Shown: in pieces, positions 4,147 to 37,679 of the stretch
Numbering within the stretch: the first letter of the stretch is position 1
Layout of the letters: each line of letters begins with the position of its first letter
Source: Minisyncoccota bacterium
GTDB lineage: Bacteria > Patescibacteriota > Minisyncoccia > Phycocordibacterales > BOKC01
Direction: 5' to 3'
Assembly: GCA_030583745.1 (NCBI GenBank)
Contig: CP129473.1
Location: forward strand, 268,551 to 332,550
DNA length: 64,000 nucleotides
Position numbers and translations under genes: made by a program
The notes under the pieces: generated by a model
What the model saw: only the letters and a program-made list of their open reading frames with translations
Told to the model about the DNA's origin: nothing
The model's database searches: none

Positions 4147-5529
4147 ATGGAGAGAATAAAAATTTCATCATTAAAAGAAAAAGTTGGACACGAAGTTAAG
4201 GTTTTAGGATGGATAAACGCAAGACGCGACCACGGCAAACTTATTTTTTTTGATTTGCGAGACGAAAGTGGTAAGGTCCAAATGGTTTCGCTCCCTCAAA
4301 ATCAAGACACTCACAAATTAGCTGACAGTTTAAGAGATGAGTGGGTGGTTGAAATAAAAGGCAAAGCCAACAAGCGTCCGGAAAAGATGGTTAATTCGGA
4401 AGAGGAATTGGGCCATATAGAAATAGAAATTTCAGAAATAAAAGTCTTGAATGAAGCTCAAACTCCACCCTTTAATCTTCAAGACAGCGGGTATGATATC
4501 AATGAAGAGATAAGAATGAAGTACCGATATTTGGATTTGAGAAGGCCTAGAATGCAGAAAAACATAAGAAATCGACACAAGATCATCAAATTTTTTAGAG
4601 ACTATTTAGATACAGAAGGTTTTGTTGAAGTAGAAACTCCAATCCTTACAAAATCAACCCCCGAAGGAGCGAGAGATTATATAGTGCCATCCAGAACCTA
4701 CCCGGGGAAATTTTACGCTCTGCCACAATCACCCCAGCAGTACAAACAATTATTGATGGCCTCGGGGATAGAAAAATATTTTCAGGTTGCAAAGTGCATG
4801 AGAGATGAAGACACCAGAGGCGACCGCCAAGCCGAATTTACCCAACTTGATATTGAGATGTCTTTCGTTGATCAAGAGAAAATTCTAGACTTGGTAGAAA
4901 ATATGTTTAGCAAAATGGTAAATAAGATCTACCCGGAGAAGACTTTTACTGAAAGTCCGTGGCCAAGAATAAACTATGATGAAGCCATGGAAAAATATAA
5001 TTCTGATAAGCCAGACATACGAAAAAACAAGAATGATCCAAACGAACTTGGTTTTGTCTGGGTATTAAATTTTCCACTTTTTGAAAAAGATTTGGAAAAT
5101 GGTCACTTCGCCCCGAGCCACCACATGTTTACCGCTCCCAAAGAAGAAGATCTGCAAAAGCTGGAAAATGATCCAGCAGATGCTAGATCTTACCAGCACG
5201 ATTTGGCGCTAAACGGCTTTGAGGTTGCGGGAGGTAGTATCCGTATTCATGACCCCAAAATTCAGGAAAAAATATTTAATCTCATCGGTTTTGACGAGAA
5301 ACAGAAAAAATATTTTGAACACATGTTAGACGCTTTCACGTTTGGCATACCACCTCATGGTGGCATAGCATCAGGACTCGACCGACTCATTGCTGTCTTG
5401 GAAAACGAATCAAGTATTCGGGAAGTCATCGCTTTTCCTAAAACAGGAGAGGGAAGAGACCTTACTATGGGAGCTCCTTCGGAAATCGAACAAAATCAGC
5501 TGAAAGACTTAAAAATCAAGACGGGATAA
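4147..5529 (+). CDS. aspS: Aspartyl-tRNA synthetase, short form without GAD insertion
   Basis: N-terminal OB anticodon-binding fold. Class II motif 2 is FQVAKCMRDEDTRGDRQAEFTQLDIEMSF. Motif 3 region is GGSIRIHD. Confidence 0.85.
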   Translation: MERIKISSLKEKVGHEVKVLGWINARRDHGKLIFFDLRDESGKVQMVSLPQNQDTHKLADSLRDEWVVEIKGKANKRPEKMVNSEEELGHIEIEISEIKVLNEAQTPPFNLQDSGYDINEEIRMKYRYLDLRRPRMQKNIRNRHKIIKFFRDYLDTEGFVEVETPILTKSTPEGARDYIVPSRTYPGKFYALPQSPQQYKQLLMASGIEKYFQVAKCMRDEDTRGDRQAEFTQLDIEMSFVDQEKILDLVENMFSKMVNKIYPEKTFTESPWPRINYDEAMEKYNSDKPDIRKNKNDPNELGFVWVLNFPLFEKDLENGHFAPSHHMFTAPKEEDLQKLENDPADARSYQHDLALNGFEVAGGSIRIHDPKIQEKIFNLIGFDEKQKKYFEHMLDAFTFGIPPHGGIASGLDRLIAVLENESSIREVIAFPKTGEGRDLTMGAPSEIEQNQLKDLKIKTG

Positions 5530-9004: not shown

Positions 9005-10104
9005 AAAAACAGAAAATAGATAGGGTTTTTTTTCTAACAGTCATCGCTTTGTTAGTCTGTGGTTTCTTTGTCTTTACTTCGGCATCTTTGGGATTACTAG
9101 CGAAAGACAAAGAGAATTTCAGCGACATAGCTTTTAACCAAACATTTTTTGGTCTCTTCTTGGGAACGATTGCCATGCTGTCTTTATCAAAAGTCCACTA
9201 CCGAAGGTGGAGAAAGTTTGCCCTCTATATTTTTTTATTTTCGATTCTTACAGCAATAGGGGTTTTTATTCCCGGTTTGGGATTTGAGCATGGTGGGGCA
9301 AGAAGATGGATTTCAATTGCCGGACTATCTTTCCAACCAGCGGAATTTTTGAAATTGGGTTTTGTCATCTATCTTGCAACTTGGCTTTCCGGTGTAAAAG
9401 AAAAAATTGGAAATATAAAATTTGGCCTCTTACCTTTTCTGTTGATAGTAGCGATTATCGCCAGTCTTTTGTTAATGCAACCGGACATTGGAACTTTTCT
9501 AGTAATCGCTACTGCCGGATTTGCAATTTTCTTGTCAGCCGGTGCTAGGTGGCGAGACATCATAATAGTCTTAATTATCGGAATTTTAGGGATAATATCA
9601 ATCGCCATTCTTAAACCATATGCCGCCGAAAGAATCGTAACTTTTCTGGATCCTTCGCGTGATTATCACAGGGCTAGTTATCAACTTCAACAGTCACTAA
9701 TTGCTATTGGCGCTGGCGGCATGTTTGGTAGAGGATTCGGACAAAGCATCCAAAAATTCGGCTTCTTGCCGGAGCCGGTCGGCGATTCCGTTTTTTCAGT
9801 CGCAGCCGAAGAGTTTGGTTTTATCGGTGGTCTTTTTCTGATCTCACTCTTTGTATTTTTTGCTTTTCGCGGTCTTAAAATTGCAAGATTTTCGCCAGAC
9901 CTATTTGGGTCTCTTCTCACTACCGGCATAATAATGTTGATAATCACCCAATCTTTCTTTAATATTGCTTCCATGACCGGTGTTGTACCGATGTCCGGAT
10001 TACCACTTTTGTTTGTTAGCCACGGCGGGACAGCATTGTTTTTTACTTTAGCTTCTATAGGTATAATTCTTAATATATCAAAGTATAAGACATATAAAAA
10101 ATGA
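8998..10104 (+). CDS. ftsW: Peptidoglycan glycosyltransferase FtsW/RodA (SEDS family)
   Basis: SEDS motifs (QPDIGT, GAGGMFGRGFGQS). Start chosen at the ATG that overlaps the mraY stop (ATGG overlap). Confidence 0.8.
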   Translation: MVKKQKIDRVFFLTVIALLVCGFFVFTSASLGLLAKDKENFSDIAFNQTFFGLFLGTIAMLSLSKVHYRRWRKFALYIFLFSILTAIGVFIPGLGFEHGGARRWISIAGLSFQPAEFLKLGFVIYLATWLSGVKEKIGNIKFGLLPFLLIVAIIASLLLMQPDIGTFLVIATAGFAIFLSAGARWRDIIIVLIIGILGIISIAILKPYAAERIVTFLDPSRDYHRASYQLQQSLIAIGAGGMFGRGFGQSIQKFGFLPEPVGDSVFSVAAEEFGFIGGLFLISLFVFFAFRGLKIARFSPDLFGSLLTTGIIMLIITQSFFNIASMTGVVPMSGLPLLFVSHGGTALFFTLASIGIILNISKYKTYKK

Positions 10105-11228
10105 AAATATTATTAACAGGCGGCGGTTCAGGTGGGCATTTCTATCCAGTTATTGCTGTGGCCGAGGCCTTAAAGGATCTGCAAAAAGAACAACATATAG
10201 TCAAACCGACGCTATATTATATGGCGCCGGAACCTTACAATAAAAGACTGCTATTTGACAACGAAATAATTTTCAAAAAAAACCCAACCGGCAAATTGAG
10301 GCGATACTTTTCGCTGTTAAACATCTCCGACACCTTCAAAACATTCTGGGGAGTTTTGAAAGCAGTCTGGACAATATTTTATATTTATCCTGACGCGGTA
10401 TTTAGCAAGGGTGGTTATGGCAGTTTTCCGGCAGTCTTTGCCGCAAAACTATTTAGAATTCCGGTTATTATCCATGAGTCGGATTCAGTACCAGGCAAAA
10501 CTAATCTCTGGGCTGGCAAATTTGCCAAAAGAGTTGCTGTGTCTTGGCCTGAATCTGCTGAATATTTCCCGAAAGAAAAAGTGGCATTTACAGGAAATCC
10601 TATAAGAAAAAGTATTTTACAACCCATTGAGGATGGTGCGAAAAAAATCTTGAAACTAGAAGATAATCTGCCCGTCGTTTTGGTTTTAGGGGGTTCTCTT
10701 GGAGCACAAAAAATAAATGACACCATAATTGATTCATTGCCAGAAATCTTGGAGTTCTGCCAAATTATCCATCAAACAGGCAAAGGGGGGCTAAAAGACG
10801 CGAAGAGCCGGGCCTCGGCAATTTTATACAACTCCGAAAAAGAAAGCAGGTATAAAGTTTTTGATTACTTAAACGACGAAGCAATGAGAATGGCGGCCGG
10901 AGTAGCAGATTTGGTAGTATCAAGAGCCGGTTCAACAATTTTTGAAATAGCAAATTGGAGCAAACCAAGTATTATAATTCCAATATCAAAATCAAACGGG
11001 GATCACCAGAGAAAAAATGCTTATGGTTATGCGCGAAGTGGCGCCTGCATTGTCATTGAAGAACCAAACCTCAACGCGAATATTTTAACTTCAGAAATAA
11101 AAAACTTGTTGGCAGACAACGATAAGTTACAGACGATGTCGCAGGCGGCTCAAAAGTTCTCCAGAAAAGACGCCGCAAAAGTGATTGCCCAAGAGATATT
11201 TAATATCGCACTTGGACACGAAAAATAG
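10101..11228 (+). CDS. murG: UDP-GlcNAc:lipid I N-acetylglucosaminyltransferase MurG
   Basis: N-terminal MKILLTGGGSGGHFYPVIAV G-loop. GT28 C-terminal domain. Confidence 0.85.
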   Translation: MKILLTGGGSGGHFYPVIAVAEALKDLQKEQHIVKPTLYYMAPEPYNKRLLFDNEIIFKKNPTGKLRRYFSLLNISDTFKTFWGVLKAVWTIFYIYPDAVFSKGGYGSFPAVFAAKLFRIPVIIHESDSVPGKTNLWAGKFAKRVAVSWPESAEYFPKEKVAFTGNPIRKSILQPIEDGAKKILKLEDNLPVVLVLGGSLGAQKINDTIIDSLPEILEFCQIIHQTGKGGLKDAKSRASAILYNSEKESRYKVFDYLNDEAMRMAAGVADLVVSRAGSTIFEIANWSKPSIIIPISKSNGDHQRKNAYGYARSGACIVIEEPNLNANILTSEIKNLLADNDKLQTMSQAAQKFSRKDAAKVIAQEIFNIALGHEK

Positions 11229-14438: not shown

Positions 14439-15398
14439 ATGACCAACTCAAATAATAAAAGTGCTCTACCCCACCTTGAAGATTTTCTTCTTTTCATCCA
14501 ATCAAATAATTATTCAAAAGAAACTTTATATAATTATGAAAGAGATCTCAAAACTTTTGAAAGATTTCTAGAAGAAGAATTTAAAGGACTCCCCTTTTCA
14601 AAAGTCACTAAAAGGACGATCGAACAATACAAGGCGTATTTGAACTCTACTGACAGAAAAACTGCCGAAGGGTCCGGCGCGCAAAAAAATCTCAAAAGCG
14701 GTTCTATAAACCGCAACCTAAGCTCGCTTAGAAGATATCTGTCGTATCTTATAGATATGGATTATGAATCTCCGATCGCCCCAGGCGCTATCAAGCTGTT
14801 GAGAATGGAGAAAAAGCATCCGCAAGTTTCCGAACTCGAAGAGCTGACTAGTTTGATTGAAGCCCCGATGAAATTTGAAAAAAACAAAAAAGTTGCCCTG
14901 CGCAACCGCGCGGCTTTGGAAACACTTTTTGCCTCTGGTATGCGTATTTCAGAACTAATATCATTAAAAATTATCCAGCTTGATAAAACTGGTCGAATCT
15001 TCATAGAGGGCAAGGGTAAAAAACAACGATTCGTCTATCTAACAGAAAGGGCTAAAAAACATATAGACAATTATTTGAAAGTTAGAGCCGATGACTCTCC
15101 TTTTCTCTTTATTGCAAGCAGAGGACAAAATGCTGGCGACAAAAACAAACACATATCGGCAAACTACCTTCAGATGAAAATAAAAAAATATCGGGAACTT
15201 TTGGGCATAAACGTTCCAACAAGCGCTCATTCATTACGTCACGGTTTTGCTACGTATTTGGCCGAGCAAGGTGCCAACCCGGCCGCCATCCAGATTCTTT
15301 TAGGCCATGAGTCACTTGATACTACGACAAGATACGTCCACGCTTCAGACAAATATGCCGAAAGCACTCACCGCAAATTCCACCCACTTAAAGACTAA
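14439..15398 (+). CDS. Tyrosine site-specific recombinase (XerC/XerD/phage integrase family)
   Basis: C-terminal catalytic motifs R...HxxR...Y (LRHGFATYLAEQGANPAAIQILLGHESLDTTTRYVH). N-terminal SAM-like core-binding domain. Confidence 0.8.
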   Translation: MTNSNNKSALPHLEDFLLFIQSNNYSKETLYNYERDLKTFERFLEEEFKGLPFSKVTKRTIEQYKAYLNSTDRKTAEGSGAQKNLKSGSINRNLSSLRRYLSYLIDMDYESPIAPGAIKLLRMEKKHPQVSELEELTSLIEAPMKFEKNKKVALRNRAALETLFASGMRISELISLKIIQLDKTGRIFIEGKGKKQRFVYLTERAKKHIDNYLKVRADDSPFLFIASRGQNAGDKNKHISANYLQMKIKKYRELLGINVPTSAHSLRHGFATYLAEQGANPAAIQILLGHESLDTTTRYVHASDKYAESTHRKFHPLKD

Positions 15399-26258: not shown

Positions 26259-28454
26259 ATGACAACTACACTAGTCATAGTAGAGTCGCCTGCTAAAGAG
26301 AAAACAATTTCAAAATATCTGGGCAAGGGCTACACGGTTAAGGCCTCAATTGGCCATATCCGCGATCTGCCAAAAAGTAATAAAAAAGCTATAGATATTG
26401 AAGCTGGCTTCGTGCCACATTATGAAATTTCCCCGGGCAAAGAAAGAGTGGTTGCGGAAATTAAAAACTCGGCGAGAAAGGCCGACGAAATTTTGTTAGC
26501 AACCGATCCAGATCGAGAGGGCGAAGCCATTGCATGGCATATTTCTAAAGCCGCTGATTTGAAAAATCCTAAAAGGATAGTTTTTTATGAAATTACAAAA
26601 GATGCGGTGTTGGAAGCTTTAAAACATCCGAGGAAAATTGATATAAATCTAAAAGAAGCCCAAGAAGCGAGAAGGGTTCTCGATCGACTTGTCGGCTATG
26701 ACCTTTCTGGGCTTATTTGGAAAAAAGTTCGGTATGGACTTTCAGCCGGCCGAGTTCAATCCCCCGCACTTCGAATAATAATGGAGCGCGAGCGAGAGAT
26801 CAGAGCTTTTGAATCTCATAAATTTTGGGTCATAACGGCAGACGTATTAAATAAGAATAAAGAACCTCTCACCCTGACTTGTTCGGAAGAACCAACCGAT
26901 TTTCAAGAGGTTCAAAGAATTCTGGAAAACGGCAAGGTGGCGAAGTGGCGAGTTAAGGAAGTAAAAGAGAGCGAAGCAAAAAGATCGCCGAGGGCACCCT
27001 TTATCACCTCAACGCTTCAACAAACCGCGAGCTCGCGACTCGGCTTTTCTCCGGCAAAAACCATGTCCGTCGCGCAAAAACTTTATGAGGCCGGACTGAT
27101 TACATACATGAGAACGGACAGTACAAACTTAAGTTCGTCTGCTCAAGCCCAAATTGCCAAAATCATCAACGAAAAATACGGTAAAGACTACTTTTCACCA
27201 AGAAACTACAAGACCAAAAGCAAATCCGCCCAAGAAGCTCACGAAGCTATTCGACCATCAGATGCCAGCAAAGAAATGGCGGGCCAAAATGAAGACCAGA
27301 AAAAATTATATAGACTGATTTGGCAAAGAACTGTAAGTTCGCAAATGTCGGACGCTAAAATCTTGAGAAGCAAAATAACCGCAAAGACCACCGAATCTGA
27401 CATACCGGAATTTTACGCCACTGGCTCCCGAATTATTTTTGACGGCTGGCTTAAAGTTGACTCGGCTGCCAAAGGAGAAGATCTGATCTTGCCCAAAGTT
27501 TCCGAGGGTGAAGAGTTGTTTCTTCAAGAAATCAAAACTGAAGAAAAAGAAACACAGCCGCCGTCGCGTTATACTGAAGCCGGCTTAATTAAGGAATTGG
27601 AAAAAAGAGGAATCGGCCGGCCTTCAACCTACGCTTCCATTATTAAAACCATTCAAGATCGCGGTTATGTTGAGAAACGTCCGGAAACTGGCGGAAAAGC
27701 CCTGTTCCCCACTGATACGGGCGACGTGGTCAGCACTTTTTTGGAAGAAAATTTTACTCAATACGTAAGCGATACTTTCACCGCGGAGATGGAAGATAAG
27801 CTCGACCTTGTCGCGCAAGGAAAATTAAAATACGAAGAAATTTTGGGGGATTTTTATAAACCTTTTCTTAAAGAAGTAAAATCAAAAGAAAAAATGGAAA
27901 AAATAACCAATCTGGGGAAAGCGGACGCGAAACTCAAATGTCCAAAATGTAAAAGTCCCATGATTATCAAACTTAGCAAGTCTGGAAAGTTTTTAAGCTG
28001 TGAAAAATTCCCAGAATGTAGCGGTGCTAGAACAATTGAAGGTGAGGAACTTCAAGGTCCAAAAGAAACCGGCGAAGACTGCCCAGAATGCAGTAAGGGT
28101 CGGCTCATAGAAAGAGACGGTAGATACGGCCGGTTTGTTTCTTGTAATCGCTATCCAAAATGCAAATTTATCAAAAAAGACCCGGAGGCAGAAAAGAAGG
28201 CCTCAACCGGTGTCAAATGCCCAGAATGTAATTCGCCAGATGGCGGAGGAGAGCTGACAGAAAAACGCGGACGTTTCGGAGTTTTTTACGCTTGCACAAA
28301 TTATCCGAAATGTAAATTTACAATCAAATCAAAACCGACCGGCGAAATCTGTAAGCTCTGTGGTTCACTTATGATGGAAGGGACAAAAACAATCCCAGAA
28401 AGATGTTCGGATAAAAATTGTCCTAATCATAATCCGCATAAACTAAACAAATAG
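26259..28454 (+). CDS. topA: DNA topoisomerase I
   Basis: Toprim N-terminus (LVIVESPAKEKTISKYLG), type IA core, and three C-terminal C4 zinc ribbons. Confidence 0.9.
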   Translation: MTTTLVIVESPAKEKTISKYLGKGYTVKASIGHIRDLPKSNKKAIDIEAGFVPHYEISPGKERVVAEIKNSARKADEILLATDPDREGEAIAWHISKAADLKNPKRIVFYEITKDAVLEALKHPRKIDINLKEAQEARRVLDRLVGYDLSGLIWKKVRYGLSAGRVQSPALRIIMEREREIRAFESHKFWVITADVLNKNKEPLTLTCSEEPTDFQEVQRILENGKVAKWRVKEVKESEAKRSPRAPFITSTLQQTASSRLGFSPAKTMSVAQKLYEAGLITYMRTDSTNLSSSAQAQIAKIINEKYGKDYFSPRNYKTKSKSAQEAHEAIRPSDASKEMAGQNEDQKKLYRLIWQRTVSSQMSDAKILRSKITAKTTESDIPEFYATGSRIIFDGWLKVDSAAKGEDLILPKVSEGEELFLQEIKTEEKETQPPSRYTEAGLIKELEKRGIGRPSTYASIIKTIQDRGYVEKRPETGGKALFPTDTGDVVSTFLEENFTQYVSDTFTAEMEDKLDLVAQGKLKYEEILGDFYKPFLKEVKSKEKMEKITNLGKADAKLKCPKCKSPMIIKLSKSGKFLSCEKFPECSGARTIEGEELQGPKETGEDCPECSKGRLIERDGRYGRFVSCNRYPKCKFIKKDPEAEKKASTGVKCPECNSPDGGGELTEKRGRFGVFYACTNYPKCKFTIKSKPTGEICKLCGSLMMEGTKTIPERCSDKNCPNHNPHKLNK

Positions 28455-28668
28455 TCTTCAGGGGAGCACGCAACCTGCGTTGCGTGCGTAGATTGTTTTT
28501 GTCGGGCGGAGCGATGCCGAGCGAGCTCGCGAGGCAGCGAGCCGGGGTCGCGAAGTTTTACGAGCGGCGGCGAGTAAAATATTTGTGACCAAAAACAATC
28601 CCAGAAAGATGTTCGGATAAAAATTGTCCTAATCATAATCCGCATAAACCAAACGATAAAATACAAAA
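28385..28668 (+). repeat. Direct duplication (~70 bp) of the topA 3' end flanking a 137-bp GC-rich insert
   Basis: 28385-28454 and 28592-28668 are near-identical (aaaaacaatcccagaaagatgttcggataaaaattgtcctaatcataatccgcataaac...). The segment between them is GC-rich with the hairpin GCACGCAAC-ctgc-GTTGCGTGC. Confidence 0.7.
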
Positions 28669-28752
28669 ACCGACCACCTAATTAAAGTATAGGGGGGGGC
28701 TTGGGATCGCTCTTCACTCTCCCCTTTCGCAAGTTTATAGTATTATGAAAGA

Positions 28753-30303
28753 ATGATTGTATCTAAAGAACCGAGATTAGAAGAAATTATTTCTCTAACT
28801 AGCGGTTTTTCCAAAAAAGACACAGAGCTTCTTAAAAATGCTTTTGAATTTGCTAAAAAAGCTCACGACGGACAAAAAAGAATGTCGGGAGAAGATTATT
28901 TTATTCATCCATTTGAAACGGCAAAAATTTTAGCCGAGCTCGGTGTTGGACCAAAAACTATTGCCGCGGGCCTGCTTCATGACGTTTTGGAGGACGCGCT
29001 TATCAGTAGAGAAGAGTTTGAGAAAGAATTCGACAAAGAAATTCTTTTTTTAGTTGAAGGCGTAACAAAACTCGGGAAAATTAAATATCGTGGTGTCAAA
29101 AGACATAGTGAAAGTTTAAGAAAACTTTTTGTCGCCATGTCACAAGATATAAGAGTTATATTAGTTAAATTAGCTGACCGGCTTCATAACATGCGGAGCT
29201 TGGAACATGTTCTACCTCACAAACAAAAGCGAATCGCCGAAGAAACTTTAGAAATTTATGCTCCTATTGCCTACCGCCTCGGAATTGGACAGCTAAAAAA
29301 ACAACTAGAAGACTTATCTTTTCCTTATGTTTTTCCAAAAGAATACAAGGAAGTAAAAGAGTTGACCAAGCAGAAAAGCAAGGACACCCAAAAACGACTT
29401 GAAAAAATTTACCGAGCTTTACAAATAAAGTTGGCAAAAGAAGGGATACGGATACTAAAAGCTGATTTCCGACTTAAAGGAATCTTTAGTCTTTTTCGAA
29501 AACTGAAAAAGTACGATATGGATATAGAAAAAATTTACGATATTTATGCTTTGAGAATCGTGGTTAAAGATGTGGCTGATTGCTATAAAGTCCTAGGAGT
29601 AATACACGAGTTCTGGCGTCCTCTACCCGGCAGGATTAAAGACTATATTGCCGACCCAAAACCTAATGGGTATAGAAGTATTCACACCACAATTTTTACC
29701 GGTGACGGTGGTATAGCCGAAATACAAATAAGAACAGAAGAAATGCACAAAGAAGCCGAGTTCGGAGTCGCTTCCCATATTTCTTACAAAGGGGATGGGA
29801 AAAAAAACCCTTGGGGCTTGGCTTGGGTTTTTCATCTCCTACCTTACGTCGGCAAAAAAAATAAGAATGATAGTGAAAAAGAAAAAGATGACATCCCGCT
29901 CTGGGTCAAAGAATTAGCTGAATTTCAATCGGAATTTGGTCAGGAAAAATTTGAAGAAGAATTAAAATCTAATTTCTTCAAGGAGCGAATTTTTGTTTTC
30001 ACACCTAAAGGAGATGTTATGGATCTGCCATTTGATGCCACGCCGGTTGATTTTGCTTACGCGATTCATTCAGATGTCGGTGATCATATGTTTGGGGCAA
30101 AGATCAATGGCAAATTTTCAGCCCTAAGTTCCAACCTGAAAAATGGCGATATCGTTGAAATTCTTACAAGACAAGGAAGTCACCCCAGTCAAAAATGGCT
30201 CGAAGATGCTAAAACAGCATTGGCGCAGAAAAAAATAAAATCGACATTATCCGATGCCAACAAAAGGTCGGAGTCTAAAAAGGAGTCTAAAAAAAAGCGC
30301 TAG
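28753..30303 (+). CDS. Bifunctional (p)ppGpp synthetase/hydrolase, RelA/SpoT homologue (short form)
   Basis: HD hydrolase motif (HDVLEDA), synthetase motif (YRSIHTTI) and a TGS-like C-terminus. Confidence 0.85.
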   Translation: MIVSKEPRLEEIISLTSGFSKKDTELLKNAFEFAKKAHDGQKRMSGEDYFIHPFETAKILAELGVGPKTIAAGLLHDVLEDALISREEFEKEFDKEILFLVEGVTKLGKIKYRGVKRHSESLRKLFVAMSQDIRVILVKLADRLHNMRSLEHVLPHKQKRIAEETLEIYAPIAYRLGIGQLKKQLEDLSFPYVFPKEYKEVKELTKQKSKDTQKRLEKIYRALQIKLAKEGIRILKADFRLKGIFSLFRKLKKYDMDIEKIYDIYALRIVVKDVADCYKVLGVIHEFWRPLPGRIKDYIADPKPNGYRSIHTTIFTGDGGIAEIQIRTEEMHKEAEFGVASHISYKGDGKKNPWGLAWVFHLLPYVGKKNKNDSEKEKDDIPLWVKELAEFQSEFGQEKFEEELKSNFFKERIFVFTPKGDVMDLPFDATPVDFAYAIHSDVGDHMFGAKINGKFSALSSNLKNGDIVEILTRQGSHPSQKWLEDAKTALAQKKIKSTLSDANKRSESKKESKKKR

Positions 30304-36963: not shown

Positions 36964-37036
36964 TGCGGGTCCAGCAGGACTTGAACCTGCAGTCCGGGAT
37001 TTGGAGTCCCGTGGTTTACCAATTAACCGATGGACC
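36964..37036 (-). tRNA. tRNA-Trp (anticodon CCA)
   Basis: Reverse complement folds as GGGTCCA...anticodon loop CTCCAAA...T-loop TTCAAGT...TGGACCC-G. Confidence 0.85.
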
Positions 37037-37679
37037 CTTTCATATACTCTCTGGCTATAGCCAATAAATCTTGAGCCAGACGAGCATCATAATATCGAAT
37101 ATTAGCACAACCTTGATAATTTTTCCTTACCCTCTTTCCTCCATTATTTTTCTTATAGGATTTCATAAACTGACCTTGAGGAATCTTTGTTATTCTTGAC
37201 CAGAAAGCTTTCTGTGTTTTTTCACTATGATAATTATGTAGATGAATACAAACTCTGAATTTTTTCTCGTTTAAAACGAAAGAAGCTCTTAAAAGTTTTA
37301 GAAAAGTAGAAATCAAATTAGGGTCTGAATTGATAAAACCAAAATATGAATCATTTTTTACCCCTTCACACCAATAAATAACAGCGCATATAACCTTTTT
37401 TGATTCTTTGTCTAGATCTACTACTTTTAAAATATCTAGAGCTTTTTGTTTTGATTCATCCAGGCGCGCTCTTTTCTTTGCTCTAAGAACTTCTTGGGAG
37501 GCAATTTGTCCTCTTGTATATTTTTTTCTTAACAACTCTTTCGCTTCATCAGATAATTCTACGTCCCTTACCCATAAAGATACAGAGCTTTTCGAAACAT
37601 TTAAGTTATCCGAAATTTCTTTAAGTGAAAATCCTTTTCCCCTCAACTGCACCGCTTTGTGCCTTTCTTTTAATTTCAT
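37023..37679 (-). CDS. HTH-domain protein, possibly LAGLIDADG-like homing-endonuclease fold
   Basis: N-terminal sigma-70 region-4-like HTH (GFSLKEISDNLNVSKSSVSLWVRD). Central AVIYWCEGVK resembles a degenerate LAGLIDADG helix. The 3' end overlaps tRNA-Trp by 14 nt. Confidence 0.4.
   Translation of the reverse strand: MKLKERHKAVQLRGKGFSLKEISDNLNVSKSSVSLWVRDVELSDEAKELLRKKYTRGQIASQEVLRAKKRARLDESKQKALDILKVVDLDKESKKVICAVIYWCEGVKNDSYFGFINSDPNLISTFLKLLRASFVLNEKKFRVCIHLHNYHSEKTQKAFWSRITKIPQGQFMKSYKKNNGGKRVRKNYQGCANIRYYDARLAQDLLAIAREYMKGSIG

Follow-up and report, generated by a model that had tools for sequence, protein, structure and literature searches.

This analysis concerns a GC-rich block behind topA, the gene for type IA DNA topoisomerase I, in a stretch of 64,000 nucleotides (nt) from a Minisyncoccota bacterium (contig CP129473.1; hereafter the window). 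The 731-amino-acid topA product is identical to NCBI WKZ26769.1 and carries the Pfam domains Toprim, Topoisom_bac and Zn_ribbon_Top1; behind the gene lie the block, a second copy of the topA 3' end and a rel/spoT homologue. In our view the block is probably a resident insertion element of miniature size, site-specific and non-autonomous, that carries a replacement topA 3' end, a guide and a folded core. The parts are listed below; a slash within a sequence marks the insertion point, and loci from other genomes and contigs are given by L numbers.

26259-28454, + strand: topA, defined by its open reading frame (ORF), translation and Pfam domains; copy 1 now supplies its last ~23 codons.
28382-28384, + strand: left-flank triplet GAC of the insertion point, which pairs with guide positions 28501-28503 (GTC).
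28385-28454, + strand: copy 1, the expressed topA 3' end (TKTIPERCSDKNCPNHNPHKLNK, then stop), which, as comparison with L214, L215 and L205 shows, was brought in by the element and has become a mosaic through gene conversion.
28466-28487, + strand: P1, a hairpin with a CUGC loop; part of the element, and terminator-like together with the T-run of the guide.
28491-28503, + strand: guide, GATTGTTTTTGTC, complementary to the uninterrupted target GAC/AAAAACAATC; its 5' part pairs with the start of copy 2 as helix P0.
28491-28602, + strand: folded core, matched by covariance model R1 (cmsearch, 94.7 bits, E = 8e-30); sole copy in the window.
28505-28543, + strand: hairpin A, with base G-N-C:G-N-C, a conserved GGA/GA internal loop (CGGAG...GAG) and a variable distal stem (alignment A1, RNAalifold).
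28546-28590, + strand: hairpin B, with base GGUC...GACC and a bulged A at 28581; its GTGACC (28585-28590) directly abuts copy 2.
28590-28681, + strand: copy 2, the displaced native topA 3' end (ending in HKPNDKIQKPTT and a stop), out of frame and no longer translated; gene conversion from copy 1 has overwritten its first ~60 nt.
28691-28727, + strand: G-rich/C-rich hairpin followed by TTT, read from the sequence (the terminator scan gave it no score); in all likelihood this is the terminator native to topA, kept downstream of the gene in L205, L214 and L215.
28753-30303, + strand: rel/spoT homologue (Pfam HD_4, RelA_SpoT, TGS), the downstream neighbor, outside the element.

The direct repeat spans 65 nt, 28384-28448 in copy 1 (the 65 nt preceding the last two topA codons) and 28590-28654 in copy 2, with 64 of 65 positions identical and a single mismatch, T/C at 28650. 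An earlier note on this DNA had described the duplication, and rightly so, with positions 1-2 nt off and copy 2 drawn slightly long. Its readings of the two endings also agree with the translations: copy 1 ends in HKLNK before the topA stop at 28452-28454, and copy 2 runs to HKPNDKIQKPTT and a stop at 28679-28681 in a frame that differs from that of topA. The GC-rich insert it reported is present at 135 nt rather than 137 (28455-28589, between the topA stop and copy 2), with a GC content of 0.59-0.63 against 0.36-0.40 in the surroundings. Within it we located the hairpin with a CTGC loop (GCACGCAAC-CTGC-GTTGCGTGC, 28466-28487) and the palindrome that the note had mentioned, which is imperfect and centered on CGAGCTCG (28507-28544).

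The 13-mer at 28491-28503, GATTGTTTTTGTC, begins with GATTGTTTTTG, the complementary motif that the note had placed at 28492. It is a perfect complement of the 13 nt GACAAAAACAATC spanning the beginning of copy 1 (28382-28394) and of the first 11 nt of copy 2 (28590-28600), and these are the only complement sites for it in the 64 kb on either strand. As the note had proposed, the unit can fold into a long-range stem: the predicted fold of 28440-28700 contains it, with z = -3.6 against shuffles. A repeat of 65 nt is too long to have arisen by chance.

The region 28301-28760 was compared by blastn with the topA loci of 80 species-level relatives, about 15 of which align through the insert into a second topA tail. 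The element is present at topA in 16-19 of these 80 Paceibacteria, and its modules follow one order: first a hairpin behind the stop, then T-rich sequence that complements the genome's own T-K-T-I codons, followed by CGGAGCG, a variable hairpin, CGCGAGYCGGGGTCG, a long hairpin, GTGACC and the second copy. Element-bearing topA genes of relatives typically end in a short HK(L/I)xK tail before the stop, and both the relatives and the tRNA-associated elements described below have hairpins that show CTGC-type loops and compensatory changes. L015 and L030 hold two stacked elements and three topA tails, L044 and L048 hold degenerate copies, and elsewhere copy 2 has often decayed except for its first 9-10 nt (L041, L071b). 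The element is absent from the two closest element-free relatives, L205/L206 (85% topA identity) and L208-L210 (79%). The sister strains L214 (GCA_016860785.1) and L215 (a Logan assembly), whose topA falls in the same 90% cluster, carry the same element in the same place; in three short-read assemblies of sister strains the contigs break 28-72 nt past the topA stop, within the repeat region. The earlier note had held that the same arrangement in relatives would speak against an insertion, a rule that proves misleading, since the arrangement recurs as recurrent and patchy insertions and not as a uniform 3' untranslated region. This patchiness, together with a family of ~140 members at other genes, bears out its suggestion of a small mobile element.

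Two further insertions or deletions were seen at topA loci. In the topA locus of a Parcubacteria metagenome-assembled genome (L006:5726-5940), a different, AT-rich insert of ~135 nt forms one long hairpin (TCCCGCAGT...ACTGCGGGG) at the same topA site (GGAC/AAAAAC), and behind it comes another topA tail (58/75 identical). The site thus seems to be shared with a second element type, unrelated to the first, that follows the same cargo strategy. In the interval from the native topA terminator hairpin to the rel promoter region, L205/L206 (L205:2480-2730) and L215 (2790-3040) have ~240 extra nt (GGGTTTTCCGCTGCGGGCGGGAGG...) that are missing from the window (compare 28730-28740) and from L214, an indel or possibly a small RNA.

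The earlier note had supposed that the element duplicated its target. The divergence between the two copies in relatives, which is mostly synonymous, indicates instead that the element carried a gene end with it. Across 13 genomes, identity between copies 1 and 2 over the first 57 nt ranges from 1.00 (window, L072) down to 0.61, the lower values lying at or below the between-genome median of 0.72. With the frameshifted L039 left out, the codon changes between copies comprise 86 synonymous and 27 non-synonymous ones (for example 14:2 in L009, 12:2 in L026 and 12:3 in L071), and displaced copies still encode TKTIPERCS.K.C.NHNPHK... up to a stop; in several genomes (L039, L041, L048) copy 2 is truncated or frameshifted. 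Such divergence under purifying selection implies that the copies derive from two functional genes, and hence that one topA end was imported with the element.

Element-free L205/L206 show which end is native. Their topA ends in HKLNDKIQKPTT and a stop, and the G-rich hairpin region next to it is the one found behind copy 2 in the window; this contiguity means that the copy 2 tail and the downstream sequence are native. The insertion itself consists of the copy 1 tail (AAATAG), P1, guide and core. In L214/L215, copy 2 has a divergent, intact body (CSKKECSNH) like the native end of the element-free outgroup L208 (CSKKECPNH), and copy 1 reads CSDKNCPNH; the 64/65 identity in the window is therefore secondary, the product of gene conversion. 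In this lineage, copy 1 overwrote the first ~60 nt of the window's copy 2, and the T/C mismatch at 28650 is a remnant of the native CCA codon. L205, where a copy-1-type body is joined to a copy-2-type (native) tail, looks like a locus that lost the element by recombination between the copies; a crossover at the right end of the homology is an alternative reading that these data do not distinguish from it. A target-site duplication model was rejected on account of the synonymous divergence between the copies and the divergent copy 2 of the sister strains.

The block is far from peculiar to topA. A regular expression applied to the loci recovered the same core behind tRNA-Leu(CAA) in L015, L071 and L073. 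In these, the stretch before CGGAG complements both T-loop and T-stem of the tRNA, and the tRNA 3' part appears once more behind GTGACC. A pattern scan of Joint Genome Institute (JGI) metagenome contigs matched at least 120 loci, and the matches listed share the anatomy, save for four or five GC-rich chance matches. The GC-rich core that the earlier note had thought worth seeking elsewhere thus has a single copy in the window and many in relatives and metagenome contigs.

At least 140 distinct elements were collected. Among the matches listed, 80 of the 140 follow a same-strand tRNA gene that ends at most 120 nt upstream, and 6 follow one that ends more than 120 nt away; 15 are of the topA type, 9 lie too near a contig end for the context to be judged, and 30 have no tRNA called upstream, a group that includes arrays and other targets. 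The 86 tRNA-associated elements in this set belong to tRNA genes of 19 amino-acid specificities, and two insertion positions are used, one within the T-loop (GGTTC/GAATCC) and one at the extreme 3' end. Element units measure approximately 130-210 nt, with 114-399 nt between repeats (median 166), and each element lies directly behind the matched gene, always in its orientation, with a guide that fits its own target and another copy of that target's 3' end. Tandem arrays occur, with three 134-nt units in L124 and two 166-nt units in L102. All seven tRNA genes in the window are without an element.

One element sits at what looks like an off-target site. Metagenome contig L197 (3150-3290) has a short-type element two codons ahead of the stop of a gene for S-adenosylhomocysteine hydrolase (AdoHcy-hydrolase), at a site (GGCAC/AAAAGC) that nearly equals the topA site GGCAC/AAAAAC. 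The target and the guide, GCTTTTGTG, form an uninterrupted hairpin there (CACAAAAGC-GTA-GCTTTTGTG), and the cargo amounts to only ~10 nt (K-A-stop).

A pattern scan of IMG/VR viral contigs yielded only 4 chance matches in GC-rich coding DNA, and neither INPHARED phages nor PLSDB plasmids gave a blastn match to the element; a phage- or plasmid-borne element was rejected, as these three collections hold no true copies. A full-text literature search returned no description of such an element, which does not prove it undescribed. What we have collected is apparently an undescribed family of protein-less insertion elements in bacteria of the candidate phyla radiation (CPR).

Several family members depart from the common plan. 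In L163 (- strand, ~4400-4560), as well as in L106, L147 and L178, GTGACC is followed by GAAA(A)G(T/C)GTAC(T/C)C(A/G)CGG and not by a plain tRNA 3' part; the apparent T-loop copy in L163 is broken by ~15 extra nt (AAGTGTACTCACGGT) and may represent a further small insertion or another target class. In a short-core subtype (L200, L199, L177, L175, L096), the stretch before CGGAGC reads ...GGAGC(N)CCGCAAGGC, is preceded by a small hairpin and lacks the usual complement to the downstream flank; in L200 this stretch resembles the end of the upstream ORF (CCGCAAGTAC) in direct orientation. At L009 (- strand, 9990-10368), at least three elements lie within ~400 nt around a tRNA gene broken by an assembly gap (N run), exemplifying heavy local accumulation and the assembly trouble that these repeats cause.

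To define the core, we aligned 81 elements, with the window as the first row (alignment A1), and combined RNAalifold with a pair count on a hand-extended structure. The consensus is a three-way junction. Helix P0 joins the guide to the nucleotides that come directly behind GTGACC, with covariation; the middle pair at the base of hairpin A (N16:N72) is CG in 36 elements, GC in 21, AU in 13 and UA in 8; two unpaired G link the hairpins; and hairpin B has eight pairs with double changes and one invariant G-U. The bulged A of hairpin B (28581 in the window) is found in 81/81 elements and was absent from the search pattern. Overall, the share of cells that pair is 87.7%, against 66.3% in column shuffles and 35-44% with slid partners, and the covariation score is 0.558 against 0.176. 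Hairpin B contains 127 G-U but 5 A-C appositions (46 and 5 when the fixed pair is left out), an excess which indicates that the + strand, the sense strand of the target gene, is the one that folds, as RNA or single-stranded DNA. Model R1 finds one copy in the window and, across 86 further loci (L205-L210 together with the 80 species-level relatives), another 29.

The earlier note had offered a structured RNA as one explanation; covariation upholds the fold, the active form of which may be RNA or single-stranded DNA. The Rfam scan it had proposed for the insert matched no family. All 4227 families, among them group I and II introns, hammerhead, hairpin, twister, pistol, hatchet, hepatitis delta virus (HDV)-like and IS605 omega-RNA motifs, gave no match on the whole window at gathering thresholds; a sensitive search of 28300-28760 at E<=10 returned nothing but two chance snoRNA matches, and 12 other element-bearing loci gave no match at E<=1. 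Kissing between the P1 loop (CUGC) and GCAG in hairpin loops was dropped as an idea, as the window's own loops do not fit by eye.

The guide matches the uninterrupted target. In 49 elements with standard geometry and an identifiable upstream copy, guide columns 11-13, 3' of P0, form Watson-Crick matches with the 3 nt left of the junction in 45-46 cases, and columns 12-13 never pair with the element's own end (..ACC). The commonest left-flank pairing is TTC:GAA, and the rare ones, CAC:GTG, GAC:GTC (the window), CTC:GAG, TGC:GCA and GGC:GCC, fit as well; column 14 does not pair with the target. In the window, the paired stretch comprises 3 nt on the left side of the insertion point and 10 nt on the right, and family-wide the guide complements 3 nt to the left and 6-10 nt to the right. 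Closure of a stem is by itself insufficient as an explanation. Guides follow three unrelated target classes (tRNA T-loop, tRNA 3' end and topA), and those of topA relatives track each genome's own topA sequence if G-U is allowed. In L015, the topA and tRNA-Leu elements share a near-identical hairpin B and differ in their guides and in compensated hairpin A stems, which indicates retargeting.

A one-mismatch copy of the 13-mer target (GACAAAAACAAAC, 15138-15150) lies within the gene of a XerC/D-like recombinase in the window, probably by chance.

No enzyme gene accompanies the elements. When 1436 ORFs within 3 kb of ~115 elements were clustered, no family was common to more than 7 loci, and all were housekeeping. 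Pfam searches of the 129 nearest ORFs found no family in more than 3, and the families present in at least 2 included no recombinase, integrase, transposase or reverse transcriptase (RT). A phmmer search of 5464 ORFs from 1.67 Mb of flanking loci with IS200/IS608 TnpA queries gave no match, a weak negative given that the queries were approximate. As no linked enzyme gene recurs, the element is non-autonomous. The window is housekeeping DNA, with dnaK, dnaJ, aminoacyl-tRNA synthetases, murG, ftsW, dnaB, recR, topA, rel, parB, clpB, infB and gyrA; the only recombinase in the 64 kb is a XerC/D-like tyrosine recombinase (14439-15398, + strand) with Phage_integrase and SAM-like N-terminal domains, and the window ORFs scanned contain no RT domain.

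Direct support thus exists for the insertion, the cargo, the conserved fold, the complementarity of the guide across the junction, the lack of a linked enzyme gene, the arrays, and later conversion or deletion between copies. The integrated unit is ~206 bp long, comprising copy 1 with its own stop, P1, the 13-nt guide and a three-way-junction core that ends in GTGAC(C); on entering topA at GAC/AAAAAC (codons T-K-T), it displaced the native 3' end downstream, where it is untranslated. The course of events that we propose for the insertion is as follows. The + strand of the element would fold, as RNA or single-stranded DNA, and the guide would pair with the sense strand of an intact target, 3 nt to the left and 6-10 nt to the right of the insertion point. 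Given the three extra left-flank pairs, the guide would tend to give up its pairing with the target copy inside the element for one with the genomic target, and this pairing could bring the 3' end of the element (GTGAC-C, at the base of hairpin B) to the target phosphodiester at the C/R junction.

Strand transfer would fall to a factor supplied in trans. One candidate is a host tyrosine recombinase acting on the folded single-stranded site, as in integron attC sites and CTX phage; others are an HUH-type enzyme, as in IS200/IS605, or an RNA reaction resembling reverse splicing followed by reverse transcription. The terminator-like P1, together with the lack of a promoter between P1 and the guide, favors a single-stranded DNA substrate with a trans-acting recombinase or HUH enzyme. 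In many T-loop-type elements, however, no T-run follows P1; these would be transcribed together with the tRNA, which leaves room for an RNA route. As each unit carries the target sequence, re-insertion would yield tandem arrays.

Some observations weigh against the proposal of a guided insertion element. The searches brought up no catalyst, and none of the results tells RNA from DNA as the active form. In the window, P1 and the T-run resemble a terminator, which would limit co-transcription of the core with topA and disfavors a purely RNA route. Where the copies differ within the first 10 nt, the guide favors neither of them, in a sample that is small and biased. That CGGA, GAG, GGGGT and GTGACC never vary is due in part to the search pattern. 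Homologous recombination between copies, and possibly ordinary allelic exchange as well, explains part of the distribution without dedicated machinery (L205).

Other explanations account for parts of the evidence. We consider it unlikely that the block is the scar of an integrase-borne island or prophage whose attP carried the gene's 3' end and whose body was lost, leaving fused attP arms. A gene 3' end borne by the element together with a displaced direct repeat is the attL/attR layout classical for tRNA-targeting integrases, and a restored gene end with a displaced repeat in a tRNA T-loop or 3' end is what we see; tandem arrays are also known for integrase elements, and the window does encode a XerC/D-like recombinase. 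However, more than 130 copies are alike in small size (unit median 166 nt) and share one core with compensatory changes, which independent deletions would not produce. No integrase recurs within 2-3 kb, the guide varies with the target, and the asymmetry between G-U and A-C reflects a single-stranded fold and not duplex protein-binding arms.

A host cis-acting structured RNA, serving 3'-end processing, stability or termination, would make the guide a switch, copy 2 a decoy and the mobility incidental. The conserved, covarying fold and the fixed position immediately behind the matched gene in its orientation would suit such a role, as would the two partners open to the guide, which can form 13 bp with copy 1 or 11 bp with copy 2, and the frequent retention of the first 9-10 nt of copy 2 after the rest has decayed. 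We nevertheless find it improbable: the element is patchy among close relatives, its targets are functionally unrelated, elements form tandem arrays and stacks, the 3' ends they bring are foreign alleles, degenerate copies exist (L044, L048), and the window's seven tRNA genes do without it.

The earlier note's word "intron-like" holds as an analogy. Were the block a miniature self-splicing intron of group II/III type, the bulged A would be a branch point, the guide an exon-binding site (EBS) or internal guide sequence (IGS), and the gene would be spliced to copy 2. The guide does complement a ligated-exon junction, as in group I P1+P10 or group II pairing between EBS and intron-binding site (IBS); the invariant bulged A, on the 3' strand of a terminal helix, is 8-9 nt away from the 3' boundary, as in domain VI, which invites the idea of a branch point; and reverse splicing would give exactly this order of parts. 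The intron and ribozyme models nonetheless fail, and we rate this reading as very unlikely. Rfam models for group I introns, group II introns (D5-D6) and small ribozymes match none of 13 elements, and neither a conserved 5' boundary nor an AGC helix of the D5 kind is present. Truncation or a frameshift often affects copy 2 (L039, L041, L048), so splicing is not required and the copy is dispensable; the element also brings its own stop codon or tRNA end. An assembly artefact, such as strain variants collapsed in tandem, has a negligible chance of being correct despite the contig breaks in the three short-read assemblies, as L214 and L215 span the whole structure with the same insertion, site and part order, and more than 100 other, unrelated contigs show this architecture with covariation.

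Among known systems, the proposed insertion element is closest in kind to site-specific, gene-end-replacing integrative elements, and its direct repeats do stem from an element-borne target 3' end that restores the gene; it differs from them in its size, lack of genes, fold and guide. Islands and prophages with tRNA-targeting tyrosine integrases, and their integrase-less derivatives (cis-mobilizable elements, CIMEs), likewise insert in the T-loop or extreme 3' end of tRNA genes, or in some protein genes, supply a replacement 3' end, leave the native end as a repeat and form arrays. The present element, by contrast, is 130-210 nt long and gene-less, with a single-stranded three-way-junction fold, a guide that tracks the target and no linked integrase: no integrase gene was found within it or next to its repeats (within 3 kb; 129 nearest ORFs).

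IS200/IS605 elements and their non-autonomous palindrome-associated transposable elements (PATEs), which the Y1 HUH enzyme TnpA moves as single strands by "peel and paste" transposition, share with it one folded strand, subterminal imperfect hairpins with an extrahelical base, and a guide 5' of a hairpin that pairs with the left flank and sets the target; hairpin-only, non-autonomous derivatives of them are known. The guide of IS608 covers 4 nt on the left side only, whereas the present one covers 9-13 nt on both sides of the junction; unlike those of IS200/IS605, hairpins A and B are dissimilar, the cargo is a gene end, and the 1.67 Mb of flanking DNA yielded neither TnpA nor TnpB, a weak negative. 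Group I and II/III introns resemble it in a guide that complements the joined flanks, a bulged A near the 3' boundary and the order of reverse splicing. The geometry of the guide is that of a group I internal guide (P1+P10), and its left side also recalls the pairing between guide and cleavage site in IS608. Unlike introns, the element is ~110 nt long, has no Rfam intron match, conserved 5' end or catalytic domains, and can dispense with the downstream "exon"; of the group II/III features (domains V and VI, a GUGYG 5' end, a required exon 2), it shares only a bulged A in a 3'-terminal helix, while RF00029 gave no match, the 5' boundary is varying target sequence and copy 2 is incomplete or frameshifted in several genomes.

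Integron attC sites and CTX attP(+) with XerCD are likewise structured sites of 60-140 nt in which one strand folds in imitation of a duplex site, with conserved extrahelical bases, a recombinase in trans and arrays. Their target is fixed and recognized by protein (attI, dif), whereas here there are many targets and a paired stem of target sequence. The bridge (seek) RNAs of IS110/IS1111 are element-encoded structured nucleic acids with reprogrammable targeting by base pairing; they have two loops, split guides, a DEDD recombinase and an insertion sequence of 1.2-1.5 kb, against one contiguous guide, no recombinase gene and a cargo here.

Other classes were set aside. A miniature inverted-repeat transposable element with target-site duplication does not fit, as the inverted repeat is target sequence and varies with the target, and the repeats run from 10 to >90 nt and are different alleles at topA. 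A diversity-generating retroelement is at odds with the single T/C difference in the window, the synonymous differences in relatives involving all base types, and the lack of an RT in the window ORFs scanned; this reading and those of a retron, hammerhead, hairpin ribozyme or HDV-like ribozyme were dropped for lack of an RT, conserved catalytic cores or Rfam support.

Tentatively, and with rather less assurance than for the insertion element itself, the family may constitute a class of mobile elements in its own right: gene-less folded RNAs or single-stranded DNAs of ~110 nt that program their own site-specific integration by a contiguous guide of 9-13 nt, which matches the intact target on both sides of the insertion point, and repair the target through a carried 3' end. 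Such an element might be mobilized by a host housekeeping enzyme or by catalysis of its own, with the bulged A and the GTGAC-C end as reactive groups. If the guide truly sets the target, for which covariation with three unrelated target classes and the apparent off-target copy at the AdoHcy-hydrolase look-alike site are the basis, the family would provide the smallest reprogrammable integration module known, a folded nucleic acid of ~110 nt together with a borrowed enzyme, and would interest genome engineers as bridge RNAs, omega-RNAs and group II introns do. The family also explains recurrent GC-rich blocks and partial tRNA copies behind CPR tRNA genes, and contig breaks there. It further shows that a selfish element can swap the C-terminus of an essential gene, topA, between lineages again and again. 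Model R1 itself describes an unannotated RNA/DNA motif that current annotation pipelines miss.

Finally, a helix-turn-helix (HTH) protein encoded in the window (37023-37679, - strand) was tried as a partner of the element, as homologues lie near three elements, but it was rejected, as contexts L216-L229 have no adjoining element. The protein has 218 amino acids, an N-terminal HTH_23/resolvase-type HTH and an unassigned C-terminal domain with a YWCEG motif. The stop of its gene overlaps the 5' end of tRNA-Trp (36965-37037, - strand) by ~14 nt, and this overlap is found in every context scanned for tRNAs, usually in the order rpmG-HTH-tRNA-Trp. No R1 element lies alongside, and the genes downstream of the HTH-linked tRNA-Trp vary, one of them being a serine recombinase. 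The protein family has at least 140 CPR members, many of them on contigs of ~1 kb.

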